Translations under genes and position numbers: made by a program
In this document: one piece after another, positions 3,636 through 48,158 of the stretch
How positions within the stretch are numbered: position 1 is the stretch's first letter
How the letters are laid out: the number at the start of each line of letters is the position of its first letter
Notes under the pieces: model-generated
What the model saw: only the letters and a program-made list of their open reading frames with translations
The model's database searches: none
What the model was told of the DNA's origin: nothing
Origin: Syntrophales bacterium
GTDB taxonomy: Bacteria; Desulfobacterota; Syntrophia; Syntrophales; UBA8958
Assembly: GCA_035448805.1 (NCBI GenBank)
Contig: DAOTJR010000012.1
Location: 1,906 to 65,905 of the forward strand
Direction: 5' to 3'
DNA length: 64,000 nt

Positions 3636-5183
3636 TCAGTCGCTGAGCTTGGCGATCTCCTTGGGCAGGAACTCGAGATCCATGTAGCCGTACTTATGGT
3701 CCTTCAGGGCTTCGGGTGTCGGGAACCGACGATCCGGGGCGTTGGTGAACATCCAGTGATTCAGCTTGATGCCCAGCTTTTCCACGGCCGCCTGCTCCAG
3801 GGCCGGACGATCATCGGGATGGGCGATGGAGATGATCTTCCTCGCCTTTTCGGCATCGGTGCAGCCCATGATGTTGACGATGCCGTACTCGGTGCAGATC
3901 CAGGTGACGAGCTGATCGGGGACGGTCACGGCACTTCCCGAATCCAGCGCCGTTACGAAGCGGGAGCGCCCCTTGGCGTCGCGGGAGGTCGCCGCCAGAA
4001 TGGCCCGGCCGCCTCTGGCCATCATGGCGCCCAGGGTGAATTGGAGCTGGCCGCCCGTAGAGGAGATGGGCCGCCCGCCGACATTGCCGGCCGCGTTCAC
4101 CCCTCTGAGGTCCATCTGGGCGAAGTTGTTGACCGTCACCATGTTGTCGAGCTGGGAGAGGCTCACGATGTTGTTCGTGTAGCCGATATCGTAACCGGCG
4201 AACTGGGGATTGCGGTGCACCCACTCGTAGTAGCGGGGGGTGTCCACGGGCATGATGTAGGCCCAGCCGCAGCGGCCCTTGTCGATGGTTTTCATGGAGT
4301 TGTCCACGACACCCGCCTCGAGGAGGGTAAAGGCGTACTCGCCGATCATCTCGCTATGGACGCCCAAGTGCTTCAAGCCGTGATCGCGCATACCGAGGAC
4401 GACGGCCGTGGGGAGGGCGCCGATGCCGACCTGGATGCAGTCGCCGTCGCGCATGATGGAGACGCAATTGGCGGCGATGGCCTTCTGGATGTCATCCGGC
4501 TGGATGTTCTTCTCGGCGATGTAGGGCCACTGGTACTTGGGATCATCCACATCCACCTCGATGAAATAATCCACCTCGTCGATGGGGAGGAGCATGCCCC
4601 GGCCGCCTTCGCACCAGGCGTAGTCGGAACGGATTTCACAGACGAATTTCTTGCAGGATTTGGCGGTGATCATGAAGTTGTTCACGCCGTAGCTGGCATT
4701 AACATAAGAACCCTGAGGAACGGCGATAGCCTGGACGCCCCAGTCCATGGCGCGGTCAGCGCGGTTCTTCCGGTAGAAGCGGGCGTATTCGGCATCCATG
4801 CCCAGGGCCCAGCCCCAGTGCTTCCAGTCCACACCCTTGTAGCCTTTGGTCATCAGGCCGCGGGTGGTGGGAAGGATGAAGGCCTCGTGAAGGACGTGGT
4901 ATTTCCCCTCCATGTCGGCGGCGGCGCAGAAGCCGTTACCGCACATGATCGCCTGGTTCCAGATCTCGATATTTTTCAGGTCGCCGGGGCCGTCGCCGAG
5001 TCTGGCCGCCAGGGCTTCCATCGTCACGAAGGTGTCCGAGCCGGGACCGCCGCGGTTGATCCAGTCACCGGACTTTACCATATCGGCCCACTGTTTCGCC
5101 GTGATGGTCTTATCCCTGAGCTTCTGCTGCACCGGGGTTGGCATCCAAATTTTTTCTTTGTTCTCAATCTTTTGTTGCGGCAT
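3636..5183 (-). CDS. Acetyl-CoA hydrolase/transferase family CoA-transferase (4-hydroxybutyrate/butyryl-CoA:acetate CoA-transferase-like)
   Basis: DCIQVGIGALP, HLGVHSEM (catalytic Glu kept), ISSTGGQ, CTEYGIVN, IISIAHPDDR; start set at ATG 5183 after GGAGG. Confidence 0.9.
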   Translation of the reverse strand: MPQQKIENKEKIWMPTPVQQKLRDKTITAKQWADMVKSGDWINRGGPGSDTFVTMEALAARLGDGPGDLKNIEIWNQAIMCGNGFCAAADMEGKYHVLHEAFILPTTRGLMTKGYKGVDWKHWGWALGMDAEYARFYRKNRADRAMDWGVQAIAVPQGSYVNASYGVNNFMITAKSCKKFVCEIRSDYAWCEGGRGMLLPIDEVDYFIEVDVDDPKYQWPYIAEKNIQPDDIQKAIAANCVSIMRDGDCIQVGIGALPTAVVLGMRDHGLKHLGVHSEMIGEYAFTLLEAGVVDNSMKTIDKGRCGWAYIMPVDTPRYYEWVHRNPQFAGYDIGYTNNIVSLSQLDNMVTVNNFAQMDLRGVNAAGNVGGRPISSTGGQLQFTLGAMMARGGRAILAATSRDAKGRSRFVTALDSGSAVTVPDQLVTWICTEYGIVNIMGCTDAEKARKIISIAHPDDRPALEQAAVEKLGIKLNHWMFTNAPDRRFPTPEALKDHKYGYMDLEFLPKEIAKLSD

Positions 5184-5659
5184 ATTTAAAATCCCTCCAT
5201 AATAAGAATTAGGAAATTGATCGAGCAGTATGTCGATCCGGTTAGTGTGTCGAACAAAGACCTCGTCCAATAAGGCAAGCTAAAACGTCCGCATCCGGAA
5301 GCAGTATCCCCCCTTTCTGTATTGATTTGGCCCGACTCCGACGAATGGTCATCCTGAAACCAAAGCAATGTTAACTATATACGGCTGATTGGCCCGAAGA
5401 CAAAAATAATGGTTCGCGGCCGCCTCACCCGGCAGACCCCGGCGACGCCGGGGCGATAAACCATAAACAGTTCGTGTCTGTTTTTGAATTTGAAGGATGG
5501 GCTTTATTAAACCGGATGACCTCATATGTCAAGGGAAAAACGGCTGAAAACGATAAAGTCGTTGAAGAAAAAGACTTATTGTCCTATACTCCCGGGGTGT
5601 AAATAGAAAACATCATTAGTTTCAACCAATTATAATATGTGAGTTCAAAGGCGGGCACC

Positions 5660-25439: not shown

Positions 25440-27191
25440 CTATTGCGCGTGTATCTTGTAGGCGGCGATGACGCTTTCTCGGCCCACCAGGGAACCGGCG
25501 GAGGTGACCAGGGCCATGACGATCTCGTCCTGACCGTCGTTATCGATATCCTTGATCTGGTAATCCGCCACGTAACCGTTCATCTTGCGGGTGCGCCAGT
25601 TTTCCACCAGCCCCATGGAATCCCATTCGAGATTGTAGAACTCGCTGGCCGTAAAGACCTTGACATTCTTCAGGATCCGGGACGGGGTGAGGTTCTTGAC
25701 GACAATCAGCTCCCGTTTACCGTCCTTGTTGGTGTCGTAGGGAATGATGCGGGTATTCATGTAGGTGTTGTAGAAGGTATAATCGTTTCCCGGTATATCC
25801 TCGCCGTAGCTTTCGATATACATGTTGCTGCCGCCGAATACATCTTCGCTCTTGTAGATGAATTCCCTGCTTCCCGTCATGGATTGAACGGCATAGAGCG
25901 GCTTGTCCGTCTCCTGGTAGACGCACAGATAGTCATAATCGTTGAAGGCGATGATCTTTTCCGCACCTTCGCCGAGATTGTCGAGTGTCAGGCCGTAGAT
26001 ATTCAGGCCCCGGGGGATTTTCAATTTCGTCCCCTCGTCGTATTTGCCGTTGCGCCATACCATTTCGTAAATGTCGGTTTCGAAGGGCCGGGATACGCCG
26101 ATCTTCTGACCGAGGGCCCTCACACCCGCGGGATTGGTGTTGATCACCCGGAACAGCCAGGGGAGGTTGTTGGCGATGGTGATGAATTTGTTGTCCTTCC
26201 ACTCCAGGACAAAGGAGGACACGGTGTTGGAGATGCTGTCGGCGCCTCTCTTGGTGAGGACATTGGAGACGATGATTTCCTTTATCCCGTTGCCGTTGAG
26301 ATCGATGATGTCCACTCCTACATATTTGTTGTAATTCCCGCCGCTGATCTTGGCCAGGAGGACGGCGTCGTTGCCTTTCTTCTGATAAACAAAGACATTG
26401 GTGTCGTCGATGACGACGATCTCATTCAGGCCGTCGCCGTTGACGTCGCCAACGTCGAGGCCGCGGTAATTCGTCGGATATTTCTGGCTCATCCAGAATC
26501 CCTTCTTGTCCCGGGGCTGGGAGCCGCTGATGAAATCCGGATTGATGGCGCCGGTGAAGGTGGCCTTTTTACCGGTCCTCATCCCGGCAATGATAATGTC
26601 TTCCCGGCCCTTCTGTGTCGGTGCGGAGCCGGGGGCGGAAATTTGGGGTAAAGCGGCGGCCGGAGCGGTCACCGCCGGGAGGGGACCGGAGGCGGGAGGC
26701 GCGGTCCCGCTGATGTGCTGTTCGATCCGCTGGGCAAAGTCATTGACTTTGACGATGACATCGTCCATGCCCTGGGACTGGGTGGCGATGCTCACCGTCT
26801 GCTTTTTGGCGTCAATATCGACGAGTTTGCCGTCGATACTGACGCTGTTGCCGATTTTGGTAATCGTCCCGGCGACTACATAATCCACCGCCAGCTTCTT
26901 TCCCAGGGCGTAGACATCCGCCGGGGTCATCTCTTTCAACTTTACCGTCTTGACGACCGGATCCACGGTATCCCTACCGAGGACCACGATCTTGTCGGTG
27001 GCGGCGATACGGGTCGAGAGCATATCCTGTATGCCCTGCTGCACATAGTCGATGTTCTCGGCGCTGTTCACGGCAAAAGGAAGCACGGCCACCGTCTTTT
27101 TGTCCTTGGCTTTCAGGGGCGCGGCGATGAGGAGGAAAAGCAGCAAGGCCCCGGCGAACATCAAAAATCTCTTATTGGAGAATCTTCTCAT
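25440..27191 (-). CDS. Exported protein: TolB-N/CsgG-like N-terminal domain plus FG-GAP/VCBS repeats
   Basis: Signal peptide, TVAVLPF, then DVGDVNGDGLNEIV, DLNGNGIKEII, DTNKDGKRELIV, DIDNDGQDEIV. Confidence 0.8.
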   Translation of the reverse strand: MRRFSNKRFLMFAGALLLFLLIAAPLKAKDKKTVAVLPFAVNSAENIDYVQQGIQDMLSTRIAATDKIVVLGRDTVDPVVKTVKLKEMTPADVYALGKKLAVDYVVAGTITKIGNSVSIDGKLVDIDAKKQTVSIATQSQGMDDVIVKVNDFAQRIEQHISGTAPPASGPLPAVTAPAAALPQISAPGSAPTQKGREDIIIAGMRTGKKATFTGAINPDFISGSQPRDKKGFWMSQKYPTNYRGLDVGDVNGDGLNEIVVIDDTNVFVYQKKGNDAVLLAKISGGNYNKYVGVDIIDLNGNGIKEIIVSNVLTKRGADSISNTVSSFVLEWKDNKFITIANNLPWLFRVINTNPAGVRALGQKIGVSRPFETDIYEMVWRNGKYDEGTKLKIPRGLNIYGLTLDNLGEGAEKIIAFNDYDYLCVYQETDKPLYAVQSMTGSREFIYKSEDVFGGSNMYIESYGEDIPGNDYTFYNTYMNTRIIPYDTNKDGKRELIVVKNLTPSRILKNVKVFTASEFYNLEWDSMGLVENWRTRKMNGYVADYQIKDIDNDGQDEIVMALVTSAGSLVGRESVIAAYKIHAQ

Positions 27192-27594
27192 TTTTTCCGT
27201 CCTTTTCTTAACGATCAATCAAGAAATAAAAGCTATGCCGGTTCGATATTCGCGAATCACCTTAATTGCCGGTGCAAACCCGATCTCGAGAAAAGTATAT
27301 ATTTTTCAATGTTTCAGCAGGTTGCCGAAAAACGCCGGTCCCGGTTGTGCCTGTCCGGACCGGTCCGGACGGGGAGCGCAGGCCGACTTCTACTAACATG
27401 CCGACCCTCTAAAAACAAGCGCCAATTTGAACGGGTCGCCGTGCGGATTCTCGCGGTTGTCATGCTGTCCTGATCAACGTCCCGGCGGGGGGCGCTCGTT
27501 TCAGGACAATAACATATGCACGCATTTGCGATTGAAATGTCGGGTGCTAAGCGATTGTTTTCATGTTTCGTTTTGCCCGCGCCGGGCATGAGGG

Positions 27595-28377
27595 TCATTT
27601 CCGGAGCATGATCGCCAGGAGACCGAGATATTCATGGCCCGTCGCTTCCAGCTTCCGCAGGGAGGTCGCGTTGGGGAAAAAGCTGCCCGGTTGCAGACGG
27701 GTCCTCTTGACGGCCAGAAAGTTCGTCGGGGCCGGTACCGGATCGAGGCCGTGCCGCCGAAAGAGGGTTACGGAACGCGGCATGTGGACCGCCGAGGTGA
27801 CAAGCAGAAAGTGACTTTTGCCGATCATGGCGGCGATTTCCCGTGCCTGATCCGCGGTGTCGAGGGATTTGTCTTCCCGGAGCAGATCTTCCTCCCGTGC
27901 CCCCATCAAAAGAGCGGTCTTTGCGAGGAGGGCCGCCTCGGGTTCGTCTTGCAAGAACGCCCCGCCGGACAGCAGCAGTTTGGTCCCGGGGAGCAGGCGG
28001 TACAGACGCATCCCTTCCAGCAGGCGGGTCAGGGATTCCGGGGACAGGCGGCTGGAAAGGGGCAGATCGCCGGCGGGGTAACTTCCTCCCCCCAAAACGA
28101 CCACGAATTTGACGTCCTGACGGCGGGGAATATCTTCCGGGTTCAACAACGGAGGATAACGGCTCTCCAGAGGGGTTATGAGGGGATCGACGATGAACCC
28201 GTAGCTTGCCAGGGCCAGCAGGACCGTACCCGTGAGGATCAAGAATTTACCTGCCGGAGGTTTCTTCTTGTTCTTCCCGAGGATGAACAGGCCGGAGAGG
28301 AGGAGGACCAGAATTATGGACAGGGGCATAAAGAAAGGGGTAACGGTTTTCTTCATAAGAAAAAGGATATCCATCAA
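27595..28377 (-). CDS. YdcF/ElyC/SanA (DUF218) family protein
   Basis: N-terminal TM segments, VVLGGG, LLLSGG, SLDTADQA, LVTSAVHMPRS, HEYLG. Confidence 0.9.
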   Translation of the reverse strand: MMDILFLMKKTVTPFFMPLSIILVLLLSGLFILGKNKKKPPAGKFLILTGTVLLALASYGFIVDPLITPLESRYPPLLNPEDIPRRQDVKFVVVLGGGSYPAGDLPLSSRLSPESLTRLLEGMRLYRLLPGTKLLLSGGAFLQDEPEAALLAKTALLMGAREEDLLREDKSLDTADQAREIAAMIGKSHFLLVTSAVHMPRSVTLFRRHGLDPVPAPTNFLAVKRTRLQPGSFFPNATSLRKLEATGHEYLGLLAIMLRK

Positions 28378-30266
28378 TTGAACTCCTTGAGCGTTGGTCG
28401 GTATGCTGACGGGACGACTGTAGCGGGGAAGGGGATCCGGAGATGATAGACACCGTATTCCATGACGGCCTCGATAGGCAGGCCTGTCTTCTCAAAGACC
28501 TTGATGATGGCCTTGTTGTCGGCGAGTACGTCGGCGGTGAATCCCCGGAGACCTTTCCTGCGGGCCACGGTAATCAGCGTTTGCAGCAGAAAAGAGGCGA
28601 TCCCGCTTCCCTGGTAGGATTCTTCGACGACGAAGGCGGTATCGCCGTAGGAGTCATCCTCCCGGCGCACATATCTCCCCTCGGCGACGATGCGCTGGAT
28701 TCCCCCTTCTTCCACGATGCCGACGAGGGACATGGTCCGTCGATAGTCGATATTTACGTATTCCTGCATCTTTTCATGGGGCATTGCCTTGAGTTCGCTG
28801 AAGTAGCGATAATAAATGGTGCGATCGGAAAAACGGTAGAACAGGCGCCGCATCTCCTCTTCGTCCGACGGTTTGATGGCGCGGAAGTGGAGGCGCCGGC
28901 CGTCTTTCAAAGTGTAATCGGCAGCGATATCGTAAGGATACATAGCCCCCGACGCCGACAGATAGATCTGGTCGGGAAAGAGGATGTGGTTTTCCCGGGC
29001 CTGCCGGACGAGTTCCGGACGGTCTGCGGGGTGGGCGATATCGATGAGGGCCTGGGCCCTCTCCCGGACCGTACGTCCGTTCAGGGAGGCGATTCCGTAT
29101 TCGGTGACGATGAGATCCAGGGCCTCGCGGTTGCTGAAGAGATGGGGATAAGCCCCGGCGCTGATGAGGATATTGCTTTCGCCGCTGCGGTTGCGGCTGG
29201 GGAGGGCGAAGACGGCACGCCCGCCCCGGGAATGGAGCGCCCCGGAGAAGAATTCCTCCGCCTGCCCCGGACCGCCGACGCTACCCCGTCCGGCATGGAG
29301 GACGACATTGCCCGTCAAATCTATCTTCCGGGCCGGGAGGATGGCGACCATCCCATCGTTGAGACTGATGCGGAAGTGGTCGGAGACGATGTCGATGCCT
29401 TGAAATTCCACCCGGGGGTTGTCATGGAGCCATTTCATGAGTTCCCGGGTTCCCAAGGCATAGGAGGTGAGGGACTTGTCCCGGAAGTATCCTTTTCTCC
29501 TGTTGGTTACGGTACCGCATTCGACCAGGTCCATGAGGGCGTCGGTGAAGAAGAAGGTGTGAACTCCCAAGTCCCTTTTGGATGTCAATTTCTTTGCCAG
29601 GGCCTCGAAAAGGGCCCCGGGGTAGAAGGACAGACAGGCGCCGTCGGCGATCACCGCGGCGACCTGGGCGGCCACCCGTTCCAAAACCGCGTCTACGGGT
29701 GGACGGGGCAGGTAGATCAGCGGTTCCGAGGCGTTCACGAAAAGATCGAATTCGCGGGCGTGCACGAAGGTGTTGCCCATCGTTCTGGGGACTGACGCAT
29801 TGATTTCCCCTACCACCAGCGACGCCTTTTCCATGGCATACCCGGCAACATCCACGGCCAATCCCAGACTGGCAAAACCGGCTTCGTCAAAGGGGGAAAT
29901 CTGAATGAACGCCGCATCCACCCGGATCGCTCCGGATTCGATAAGGGCGGGAATTCTGGATATCCGGCTGGGGATCAGATCCACCGCCCCGGAGGTTATG
30001 GCCTCCCCGGCCGGCCAGCCCGAGTAGAAGGTCTTGAGGCGGAATTGACCCGGCCGGGCCCGGGTCTGGAAGGCGAGGGCATCGCCGATGCTCACCAGTT
30101 GGATGAGTTCCAGATCGGTCAGATTGTTGTGCGCCGAGGAGAGAAGGGCCTTGGTCAGCGTCCGTGGTTCCGCCGCGCCGGTGCCGATAAAGATGCTCAT
30201 ACCCGGCCGGAGGCGTGCCATGACCTCGGCGGGGGAGACCGTCTTGGCGATGATCTCTGATTTCAT
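28374..30266 (-). CDS. Acetyl-CoA hydrolase/transferase domain fused to a C-terminal Pat-like GNAT acyltransferase (paralog 2)
   Basis: IFIGTGAAEP, VDLIPSRIS, IVTEYGIA, IDIAHPADR; FRAIKPSDEEEMRRLFYRFS...YQGSGIAS...ADVLADNKAIIKVFEK. Confidence 0.9.
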   Translation of the reverse strand: MKSEIIAKTVSPAEVMARLRPGMSIFIGTGAAEPRTLTKALLSSAHNNLTDLELIQLVSIGDALAFQTRARPGQFRLKTFYSGWPAGEAITSGAVDLIPSRISRIPALIESGAIRVDAAFIQISPFDEAGFASLGLAVDVAGYAMEKASLVVGEINASVPRTMGNTFVHAREFDLFVNASEPLIYLPRPPVDAVLERVAAQVAAVIADGACLSFYPGALFEALAKKLTSKRDLGVHTFFFTDALMDLVECGTVTNRRKGYFRDKSLTSYALGTRELMKWLHDNPRVEFQGIDIVSDHFRISLNDGMVAILPARKIDLTGNVVLHAGRGSVGGPGQAEEFFSGALHSRGGRAVFALPSRNRSGESNILISAGAYPHLFSNREALDLIVTEYGIASLNGRTVRERAQALIDIAHPADRPELVRQARENHILFPDQIYLSASGAMYPYDIAADYTLKDGRRLHFRAIKPSDEEEMRRLFYRFSDRTIYYRYFSELKAMPHEKMQEYVNIDYRRTMSLVGIVEEGGIQRIVAEGRYVRREDDSYGDTAFVVEESYQGSGIASFLLQTLITVARRKGLRGFTADVLADNKAIIKVFEKTGLPIEAVMEYGVYHLRIPFPATVVPSAYRPTLKEFN

Positions 30267-46646: not shown

Positions 46647-48158
46647 ATGACCACCCCGATCCAACAAAAGATTCGCGACAAGAAGCGCACCCCGTCGCAG
46701 ATCCTCGATATGGTCAAATCGGGGGACTGGATTCAGCCCGGTTCCGTCGGCGGTGACGCGACGGTATGCATGAAAGAGCTGGCCCGGCGTCTCGGACCCC
46801 ATTTGAAAGACATAGAAATCTGGAACTATGCCATGTTTTTCCCCCACCCCGAATTTCAGCAGGTGGACCCGAAACAGGAGTACCATGTCTTTCATGAATA
46901 TTTCTTTTTCCCCTGGCATCGCAAGGCCAGAGACGTCAACAATGTGACGAGCTGGGCCCAGTGGGGCTGGGCGATGGGCGTCTGGAACACCCATTACCGC
47001 TTCGTCCACGCCGTCCGGGAGAAGCGGGGCCTGGACTGGTGGTGGAACGCGGCCACTGCCTTCGACGAACACGGTTTTGTGAACTTTTCCTACGGGACCA
47101 ACAACGCCTTCATCTATTCCCAGTGTGCGAAAAGATGCGTCATGGAGGTTCGCTCCGACTATCCCTGGGCGGAAGGCGGGCGGCTGAATACCTTTCATAT
47201 CGACGACATCGACTACTGGGTAGAGGTCGATGTGGAAAAATACCGGTGGCCCCAGATCAATGAAAGGAGCATGCGGGCCAACCCGGAGGAACAGGCCATC
47301 GCCGACAACATCATGACGATCATGAGGGATCGGGATGTCATCCAGCTCGGCATCGGCTCCCTGCCTTCGGCCTGCGTCGGGGCGATGGCGAATGCCGGGT
47401 TCAGGGATTTGGGCATCCATACGGAGATGCTCAACGCCGGCCTCATCAAACTCATCGAATCCGGTCAGGTGACCAATCGCTACAAGTCCCTGACGGCCGA
47501 CCGGGGCAAGAGCGTCTATACCTTTGCCTTTCCCGTGGATGCGGCCTGGTACTACAATACGATCCACCGGAACCCCAACATGGCCGTGTACGACATCAAT
47601 TATACCAACAATGTGCATAACCTGACCCGTCTGGACAACATGCTCGCCATCGACAATTGCATTGCCGTCGATCTCCTCGGGCAGCAGTGTTCCGGATTTT
47701 ATCAAAAAAGGCCGATTTCGAGTACCGGGGGATATTTCAATTTCATCGTCTTCTGCGGCCAGAGTAAAGGCGGGCGGGGTGTCGCCGCCATGACCTCCCG
47801 AAGCAAGCACGGCACCTCCCGCATCGTACCTTTCCTCCCCGAAGGCTCGGCGGTGGATGTGCCGGCGCAGTTCAGTCAATATATCTGCACCGAATACGGT
47901 ATCGTGAATCTCCGCGGCCTCAATGGCTATGAACGGGCGGCGGCTCTCATCTCCATCGCCCATCCCGACGATCGGGAGTGGCTCGAACGGGAGGCACGGA
48001 AACACGGCCTCCTGGCGCCGAGTTTTCCCGTTTCCATGCTGCCAAGGGAGGGCGGGGCCAGGCGTTATCCCGCCTACAATGACCGCCGCCAATACAAGCT
48101 GCCCTATCACGGCGAGATTTGGGGATATGACTGGGACCCCTATCAATCCGCGAAGTAA
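46647..48158 (+). CDS. Acetyl-CoA hydrolase/transferase family CoA-transferase (second stand-alone paralog)
   Basis: DVIQLGIGSLP, DLGIHTEM (Glu kept), ISSTGG, ICTEYGIVN, ISIAHPDDR. Confidence 0.9.
   Translation: MTTPIQQKIRDKKRTPSQILDMVKSGDWIQPGSVGGDATVCMKELARRLGPHLKDIEIWNYAMFFPHPEFQQVDPKQEYHVFHEYFFFPWHRKARDVNNVTSWAQWGWAMGVWNTHYRFVHAVREKRGLDWWWNAATAFDEHGFVNFSYGTNNAFIYSQCAKRCVMEVRSDYPWAEGGRLNTFHIDDIDYWVEVDVEKYRWPQINERSMRANPEEQAIADNIMTIMRDRDVIQLGIGSLPSACVGAMANAGFRDLGIHTEMLNAGLIKLIESGQVTNRYKSLTADRGKSVYTFAFPVDAAWYYNTIHRNPNMAVYDINYTNNVHNLTRLDNMLAIDNCIAVDLLGQQCSGFYQKRPISSTGGYFNFIVFCGQSKGGRGVAAMTSRSKHGTSRIVPFLPEGSAVDVPAQFSQYICTEYGIVNLRGLNGYERAAALISIAHPDDREWLEREARKHGLLAPSFPVSMLPREGGARRYPAYNDRRQYKLPYHGEIWGYDWDPYQSAK

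Follow-up and report, generated by a model that had tools for sequence, protein, structure and literature searches.

A Pat-type acetyltransferase fused to a conserved, catalytically degenerate CoA-transferase domain in a Syntrophales bacterium, with a possible role as an acyl-CoA-binding regulatory module

The 64,000-nucleotide stretch of Syntrophales bacterium DNA analyzed here (the window; assembly GCA_035448805.1, contig DAOTJR010000012.1, positions 1,906 to 65,905) carries on its reverse strand an open and intact reading frame (ORF) of 630 amino acids (aa) at 28374..30266. It encodes a two-domain fusion of a coenzyme A (CoA)-transferase-like N-terminal domain (N-domain) and a Pat-type GNAT acetyltransferase domain. 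The genome holds four CoA-transferase/GNAT fusion paralogs, hereafter P1 to P4, and the ORF under study is P2. The N-domain of P2 has lost the catalytic glutamate and two glycine-rich loops of family-I CoA-transferases, but it evolves under constraint equal to that on the GNAT domain. With moderate confidence, we read P2 as a Pat-like lysine acyl- or acetyltransferase in which the pseudo-CoA-transferase domain would serve as a CoA- or acyl-CoA-binding regulatory module.

Domain architecture of P2

The boundaries of P2 (28374..30266, minus strand, as are all features of P2 given below) were drawn from the ORF, Pfam and NCBIfam searches, sequence matches to Protein Data Bank (PDB) entries, and an AlphaFold2 model. 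Pfam identified AcetylCoA_hydro (PF02550) at aa 24-175 (E value, 1.5e-11), AcetylCoA_hyd_C (PF13336) at aa 272-423 (E value, 7.7e-43), and the GNAT domain Acetyltransf_1 at aa 503-595. The best partial NCBIfam matches are butyryl-CoA:acetate CoA-transferase (aa 6-428) and acetyltransferase Pat (aa 451-595), both scoring far under the equivalog cutoffs. The 4-hydroxybutyrate-CoA-transferase-like N-domain covers aa ~8-430 (28977..30245), as delimited by phmmer matches to 9vag, 2oas, and 3eh7, a Foldseek match to 2oas, and the selection analysis below. It is followed by a linker of lower conservation (aa 431-454; 28905..28976), within which the alignments show an invariant Pat-type YP motif (Y443/P444), and by the Pat-type GNAT domain (aa 455-612; 28431..28904), placed by phmmer matches to Pat structures and a Foldseek match to 4u5y.

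The AlphaFold2 model was built on a 94-sequence alignment and has a mean predicted local distance difference test score (pLDDT) of 84.5 and a predicted template modeling score (pTM) of 0.71. In Foldseek searches, the modeled N-domain superimposes on the CoA-bound 4-hydroxybutyrate CoA-transferase 2oas with a template modeling (TM) score of 0.90 and a root mean square deviation (rmsd) of 2.6 Å. The modeled C-terminal domain matches 4u5y (TM score, 0.89; rmsd, 2.3 Å; 32% identity), the GNAT domain of S. lividans PAT in complex with the C-terminal domain of acetyl-CoA synthetase.

The N-domain lacks three catalytic signatures

P2 was aligned with HMMER to the solved 4-hydroxybutyrate CoA-transferases 9vag (E value, 4e-79), 2oas, and 3eh7. 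Phe238 of P2 pairs with the Glu of LGVHTE in these enzymes, LSFYPGA pairs with LQMGIGA, and GGPGQA pairs with SGFGGQ. A first-pass annotation made from the sequence had reported GVHTFF in place of G[VI]H[ST]EM, with the Phe codon at 29553-29555, and SFYPG in place of QIGIG. Both readings are exact by the ORF coordinates and the alignments to solved enzymes: GVHTFF begins at aa 234, the Phe238 codon (TTC; 29553..29555) occupies the catalytic Glu position, turning GVHTE into GVHTF, and SFYPG (aa 213-217; 29616..29630) lies under the QxGxG gate loop. The third loss was absent from that annotation, namely, GGPGQA (aa 331-336; 29259..29276) in place of the SGxGGQ loop of active enzymes.

The catalytic Glu of the G[VI]H[ST]E motif forms a glutamyl-CoA thioester. 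The study of RipA described this active-site Glu as essential to the family-I ping-pong mechanism and found that an adjoining three-residue Gly-Val-Gly loop (G-V227-G) gates the acyl-CoA cleft (PMC3180442). Phe occupies the Glu site in 24/24 members of the P2 ortholog clade, and Glu was found in none of the 122 closest family members (the 120 nearest database relatives plus P1 and P2), where the column holds Tyr (55), Phe (52), Leu (9), Pro (3), Ile (2), or Thr (1). Phe238 is therefore neither a chance event nor a sequencing error. P2 has the two-lobe alpha/beta fold of a family-I CoA-transferase (PF02550 plus PF13336) and lacks the catalytic Glu, the QxGxG gate loop, and the SGxGGQ loop. Its N-domain is best explained as a family-I CoA-transferase fold that is no longer able to run the ping-pong reaction.

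That the N-domain is still an enzyme, acting as a thioesterase or transferase through a relocated nucleophile, appears very improbable. Migrated catalytic residues are known from some pseudoenzymes (PMC10211241), and the fusions have a conserved Glu33 (AEP) in the N-terminal loop. However, three separate catalytic elements were lost together, and the Glu site is occupied variously by Phe, Tyr, Pro, Leu, or Ile, none of which is a nucleophile. Glu33 was rejected as a relocated catalytic residue: it is equally conserved in the fusions that retain the original Glu and is thus not compensatory.

The N-domain is under purifying selection and appears remodeled

With its catalytic Glu and two Gly-rich loops gone, the N-domain could also be a remnant that is decaying under relaxed selection. 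The first-pass annotation had argued instead for a retained noncatalytic role and had named the ratio of nonsynonymous to synonymous substitution rates (dN/dS) in this domain as the check. We estimated dN/dS per domain with the NG86 method for same-genus P2 orthologs (L009-L016; 75 to 80% identical) from related genomes. The ratio was 0.05 to 0.14 in the N-domain and 0.06 to 0.16 in the GNAT domain (one pair without nonsynonymous change gave 0). Restricting the comparison to unsaturated pairs (dS, 0.1 to 0.5) gave ratios of ~0.05 to 0.12 (N-domain) and at most ~0.10 (GNAT domain).

Conservation points the same way. Across 49 nonredundant members of the clade without Glu (the Glu-less clade), mean column conservation is 0.81 in the N-domain versus 0.78 in the GNAT domain, and the replaced motifs stand at or above the N-domain average (LGVHTFFFTD, 0.91; the GGPGQA region, 0.82; SFYPG, 0.82). 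Over 423 aa, the Glu-less paralogs are only 1 to 2 gap positions apart. Divergence has kept pace in the two domains: the identity between P2 and P1 is 57.6% for the N-domain and 62.0% for the GNAT domain. The clade is ancient and phylum-wide, its ORFs are intact, and the fold of P2 is confidently predicted by the model. Relaxed selection on the N-domain was not found; we count the dN/dS values, equal to those of the GNAT domain, as a refutation of decay, which retains next to no probability. Together with the motif conservation and the near absence of indels, they support the retained noncatalytic role that the first-pass annotation had advanced.

The N-domain has also changed in a patterned way. 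At 62 positions, the Glu-less clade has fixed (≥80%) a residue other than that fixed (≥70%) in the Glu-retaining fusions, and many of these substitutions are charge switches (R101/F, W84/D, R313-K314/L-E, R358-N359/T-A, and D415/F). Four residues, H236, N255, K258, and K264, are conserved in Glu-less fusions, Glu-retaining fusions, and unfused enzymes alike. The domain thus seems to have been remodeled rather than eroded, and the data support its retention for a noncatalytic role.

The charge switches could lie on the surface, as would be expected if the N-domain were purely structural, a scaffold for dimerization or a surface on which protein substrates dock, with no small-molecule ligand; it might, for example, pair with a genuine CoA-transferase or with acyl-CoA enzymes. 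We regard this explanation as unlikely, though several observations speak for it. Members of this subfamily of family-I CoA-transferases dimerize tightly (PMC3180442), all the loops that normally embrace the thioester are replaced in P2, and the genome encodes four unfused CoA-transferase paralogs as potential partners. Against it, the most conserved segments of the Glu-less clade are the remodeled active-site motifs (0.82 to 0.91) rather than generic surface, the four basic and polar residues shared with active enzymes are retained, and the paralog lineages differ specifically at the pocket motifs, as described below.

Origin and diversification of the Glu-less fusions

Searching the genome (2.68 Mb in 66 contigs) recovered four fusion paralogs, three Glu-less (P1, P2, and P3) and one Glu-retaining (P4). 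The first-pass annotation had recognized two paralogs with different nonacidic residues at the catalytic site; the residues stand (Pro in P1 and Phe in P2), and the count falls short of the four present, one of which keeps Glu. P1 (6509..8422 of the window, plus strand; 637 aa) is 58% identical to P2 over ~605 aa and reads GIHSPFF at the Glu site and ISFAIGP at the gate loop. P3, on contig C23, is 65% identical to P2 and has GVHTFFF, ISFYNGP, GSPGQA, and, in its GNAT domain, PNTAF. P2 itself combines GVHTFFF with SFYPG, GGPGQA, and a GNAT GDTAF. P4 (locus L004; contig C16:30506-32335, minus strand; 624 aa) is 35% identical to P2 and has GVHTEL, IQVGYGS, SGVGGQ, and a GNAT AEVAF. Because P4 keeps all three catalytic signatures, the fusion predates the inactivation. 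The clade of P4 is very large and 77 to 95% conserved in Syntrophales, and P4 may be bifunctional, joining CoA-transferase and lysine acetyltransferase activities.

The fusion architecture is abundant, and word-index searches returned thousands of homologs. The residue at the catalytic site was tabulated across the family, a further check that the first-pass annotation had called for; beyond the close relatives of P2, which lack Glu throughout, the 87 full-length fusion representatives drawn from 50%-identity clusters have Glu in 42, Asp in 16, and other residues in 29. P1, P2, and P3 fall into a monophyletic clade in the N-domain tree (support, 0.98). Parsimony requires at least 18 changes between Glu and non-Glu among the 87 representatives, which indicates that the catalytic residue was repeatedly dispensable once the domain was fused; some branches keep Glu, and at least a dozen have lost it.

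Loci in named genomes that are at least 48% identical to P2 come from Syntrophales, Smithella, Desulfobacterales, SAR324, and the cultured Desulfocicer vacuolatum DSM 3385; all lack Glu and have both Gly loops altered, wherever the motifs are readable. Fusions that are 35 to 39% identical to P2 occur in Planctomycetota, Acidobacteriota, Myxococcota, Elusimicrobia, and other phyla, and nearly all of them keep LQxGIG, GxHTEMF, and SGxGGQ (locus L101 has Gly at the Glu column). Of 301 genomes sampled evenly across the phylum, 34 (~11%; 20 of 200 genera) carry a member of the Glu-less clade. Among 41 relatives, 38 have a fusion of one type or the other, mostly in multiple copies; the majority of genomes in the order are carriers, often with three or four paralogs. 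By these comparisons, Glu loss is an ancient, clade-wide trait and not a peculiarity of P1 and P2.

Each of the three Glu-less lineages is conserved internally and diverges from the others at every former active-site motif. The P2 lineage has LSFYPG at the gate loop, GVHTFFF at the Glu site, and GNVGGGPGQAE at the GxGGQ site; the corresponding motifs are SFYSGA, GVHT[YF]FF, and GNVTPGPG[QH]A in the P3 lineage and S[FYL]xIGP, GxH[ST]PFF, and GNVTAGPGNV in the P1 lineage. Such lineage-specific motifs would be expected of diverged ligand pockets, a pattern that is consistent with the first-pass suggestion that the paralogs may sense different acyl-CoAs.

Other branches of the family also depart from the canonical site. 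Several separate fusion clades have Asp at the Glu position. A Glu-to-Asp change is known to turn glutaconate CoA-transferase into a thioesterase, so the clades with Asp at this site could represent fusions of an acyl-CoA hydrolase with a GNAT domain. Among the unfused homologs, one clade of ~420- to 435-aa proteins (P0216, P0241, P0244, P0246, P0253, P0259, P0261, and P0270) carries Gly in the Glu column (GxH[ST]G[MI]), keeps QxGxG and GxGGQ, and may be another noncanonical or pseudo-CoA-transferase group. The two unfused CoA-transferases of the window (3636..5270, minus strand, and 46647..48158, plus strand) have GxH[ST]EM and QxGIG intact; they form a long divergent branch with Trp-rich insertions near aa 90-130 and C-terminal extensions, and one of them precedes P1 by ~1.2 kb, in the opposite orientation.

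The GNAT domain is of the Pat type

In phmmer searches, the GNAT half of P2 matched the Pat structures 9it0, 9isq, 4nxy, 4u5y, 4oll, and 4ava with E values of 1e-15 to 2e-20, and these structures match P2 at aa 442-610 only. The Pat-specific N-terminal extension (YP...FRPI.P.DE...YYRYF) is present in P2 and aligns residue by residue to 9it0 and 4nxy. The acetyl-CoA-binding Q/R-x-x-G-x-G/A motif of GNAT enzymes is intact as QGSGIA (aa 552-557; 28596..28613) and is conserved across the clade as QGxGIA. The alignment also bears out the GDTAF motif (aa 541-545) and the string shared with the GNAT half of P1 that had been quoted in the earlier reading of the sequence.

GDTAF replaces AEVAF and places Asp542 (28641..28643) at the position of the Pat general-base Glu; across the Glu-less clade, this column holds Asp in 109 sequences, Glu in 6, and Asn in 5. 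The first-pass annotation had not pointed out this change. In Pat enzymes the general base is Glu (E809 in SePat and E234 in MsPat). The MsPat E234A mutant keeps partial activity (PMC8556138). Asp542 could still serve as a base, and acyltransferase activity of P2 is plausible. No classical Pat was found elsewhere in the genome, as tblastn searches with the GNAT domain returned the four fusions alone.

An improbable alternative is that the GNAT half acylates a small molecule, such as an amine, an amino acid, or an antibiotic-like compound, with the N-domain holding or selecting the acyl-CoA donor. The database names of the family are generic ("GNAT family N-acetyltransferase" or "RimJ/RimL"), the Pat general-base Glu has become Asp, and P2 has no operon link to protein substrates, all of which would be compatible with such an activity. 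The best sequence and structure matches, however, are Pat-type protein acetyltransferases (9it0, 4nxy/4u5y, 4oll, and 4ava), with the YP extension included, and the best NCBIfam match of the GNAT half is acetyltransferase Pat.

A proposed acyl-CoA-responsive lysine acyltransferase

For P2 as a Pat-like lysine acyltransferase regulated by its N-domain, we infer ligand binding, allostery, and substrate identity as follows. The remodeled former active-site cleft would still bind CoA or a particular acyl-CoA, the N-domain probably retains the dimer interface of its enzyme ancestors, and binding of the ligand would gate the GNAT domain at the C terminus allosterically. That domain would then acylate target lysines, most plausibly the A10 lysine of AMP-forming acyl-CoA synthetases of the genome, and two sirtuins would remove the acyl mark. 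Acetylation of this A10 lysine, with reversal by CobB, is a hallmark of Pat-type enzymes. We count in favor of this proposal that candidate substrates and erasers are both encoded in the genome, which has 13 AMP-binding enzymes (acyl-CoA synthetases), six of them with an A10-type motif retaining Lys (one of the six, a 659-aa enzyme on contig C7, is Acs-like, with PKTRSGKI), and two SIR2 deacylase genes. In Rhodopseudomonas palustris, Pat-type enzymes are known to acetylate the CoA ligases for benzoate, 4-hydroxybenzoate, and cyclohexanecarboxylate, which makes acyl-CoA ligases attractive targets in a syntroph. A precedent for the regulatory arrangement is found in type I Pat, whose catalytically inactive N-domain binds acetyl-CoA and regulates the GNAT domain (PMC8556138).

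Several observations weigh on the other side. The altered gate and GxGGQ loops surround the thioester in active enzymes, so CoA binding may have disappeared together with catalysis. With Asp in the general-base position (Asn in some proteins of the P3 lineage), the acyltransferase chemistry may be altered or weak. Finally, a survey of clustered ORFs within 4.5 kb of the fusion gene at 80 loci found neither an acyl-CoA synthetase nor a sirtuin as a conserved operon partner.

Comparison with known acetyltransferases and CoA-transferases

P2 resembles type I Pat/PatZ (YfiQ; Salmonella enterica and E. coli; 9it0 and 9isq) in its C-terminal Pat-type GNAT domain, which is homologous from the YP motif through QxxGxG/A, and in a large N-domain derived from a CoA-utilizing enzyme without catalysis. 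Acetyl-CoA binding and regulation of the GNAT domain are properties of the Pat N-domain (PMC8556138). The N-domain of P2, in contrast, is a family-I CoA-transferase (PF02550 plus PF13336), whereas that of Pat is an NDP-forming acyl-CoA synthetase; P2 is also shorter (630 versus ~886 aa) and has Asp rather than Glu as the general base. Since the N-domain fold differs, P2 is not a type I Pat.

The order of domains in P2 also recalls the type III GNATs, in which an N-terminal sensor domain (~300 to 400 aa) precedes a Pat-type GNAT domain, as in MtPat/MsPat of Mycobacterium (cAMP domain), the actinobacterial ACT-GNAT proteins, and MxKat of Myxococcus (NADP+ domain); a sensor role in P2 would be analogous. 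The GNAT domain of P2 aligns to 4oll and 4ava at E values of ~1e-15 to 1e-17. Unlike the type III proteins, P2 has a ~430-aa pseudo-CoA-transferase as its N-domain. The reviews consulted sort bacterial GNAT protein acetyltransferases into five domain types (I to V), none with a CoA-transferase-derived domain (PMC8556138), and our literature searches found no publication on this architecture or on a CoA-transferase pseudoenzyme acting as a sensor.

Compared with the CoA-transferases AbfT (3gk7), the Shewanella enzyme 2oas, RipA (3qli), and 9vag, the modeled N-domain preserves the whole two-lobe fold (TM scores, 0.86 to 0.92) at 27 to 37% identity and keeps H236, N255, K258, and K264. It differs from them in lacking Glu, the G-x-G gate loop, and the GxGGQ loop, in the added C-terminal GNAT domain, and at the 62 positions that are fixed differently. 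The Glu-retaining fusions (P4 and those of Planctomycetota, Acidobacteriota, Myxococcota, and others) share the two-domain architecture and the Pat-type GNAT domain and are the evolutionary parent group of P2. They are set apart by keeping GxHTE, QxGxG, SGxGGQ, and the Glu of the GNAT AEVAF motif, with P4 only 35% identical to P2; these proteins may be bifunctional and are as uncharacterized as P2.

Genomic context of the fusion genes

P2 is flanked by a divergent purB and by a DUF218 membrane-protein gene (27595..28377, minus strand; identified by Pfam and synteny) that lies directly downstream. The DUF218 gene overlaps P2 in a TGATG stop/start and is probably cotranscribed with it; its product is YdcF/ElyC-like, and no functional link to P2 is evident. 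The DUF218/purB arrangement is kept in same-genus and some same-family orthologs. P1 adjoins tig-clpP-clpX-lon. The 80 loci yielded no conserved operon partner from which a substrate could be named, and the DUF218/purB synteny is confined to the genus and family.

The commonest neighbor of the fusion genes is an AMP-forming acyl-CoA ligase, present at 9 of the 80 loci. An ADP-forming (NDP-forming) acyl-CoA synthetase of ~713 aa lies near the fusion at four loci (median distance, -8 bp), three of them with Glu-retaining fusions and one with a member of the Glu-less clade; in L104, the synthetase gene ends just upstream of the fusion. In the Glu-retaining branch, this proximity may point to a functional connection with acyl-CoA synthetases. 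Elsewhere in the genome, an AMP-binding enzyme gene (C9:61129-62241, minus strand) lies directly beside a SIR2 gene (C9:62483-62992, minus strand); its product has the A10 motif PKTPAGTV, in which Thr replaces the acetylatable Lys. Within the window, the region 25440-27218 (minus strand) encodes a 592-aa predicted lipoprotein with an unusual pairing of a CsgG-like N-terminal segment and FG-GAP/VCBS-type repeats.

Implications for acylation in syntrophic bacteria

Syntrophs make their living from acyl-CoA chemistry near thermodynamic equilibrium. Their proteins bear unusually diverse lysine acylations for which the writer has not been identified, and the acyl-proteome study of Syntrophus aciditrophicus identified sirtuin erasers and no acyltransferase (PMC8942843). 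We raise, as a doubtful but consequential extension of the proposal above, that the fusions form a new class of lysine acyltransferase "writers" whose pocket senses or selects a specific reactive acyl-CoA, for example, benzoyl-, glutaryl-, crotonyl-, or cyclohexane-carboxyl-CoA, with P1, P2, and P3 installing or gating different acyl marks on acyl-CoA-metabolizing enzymes. If true, this would supply the enzymatic control that is missing from the acyl-lysine-rich proteomes of syntrophs (PMC8942843).

The family, with branches in which Glu is kept and others in which it is lost, offers a clean natural series for the study of pseudoenzyme evolution, and the Glu-less clade has a cultured carrier in Desulfocicer vacuolatum DSM 3385. 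In syntrophs and sulfate reducers, the fusion probably couples protein acylation with the pools of acyl-CoA, and an acyl-CoA-gated acyltransferase family would make the control of acylation in syntrophs directly testable.

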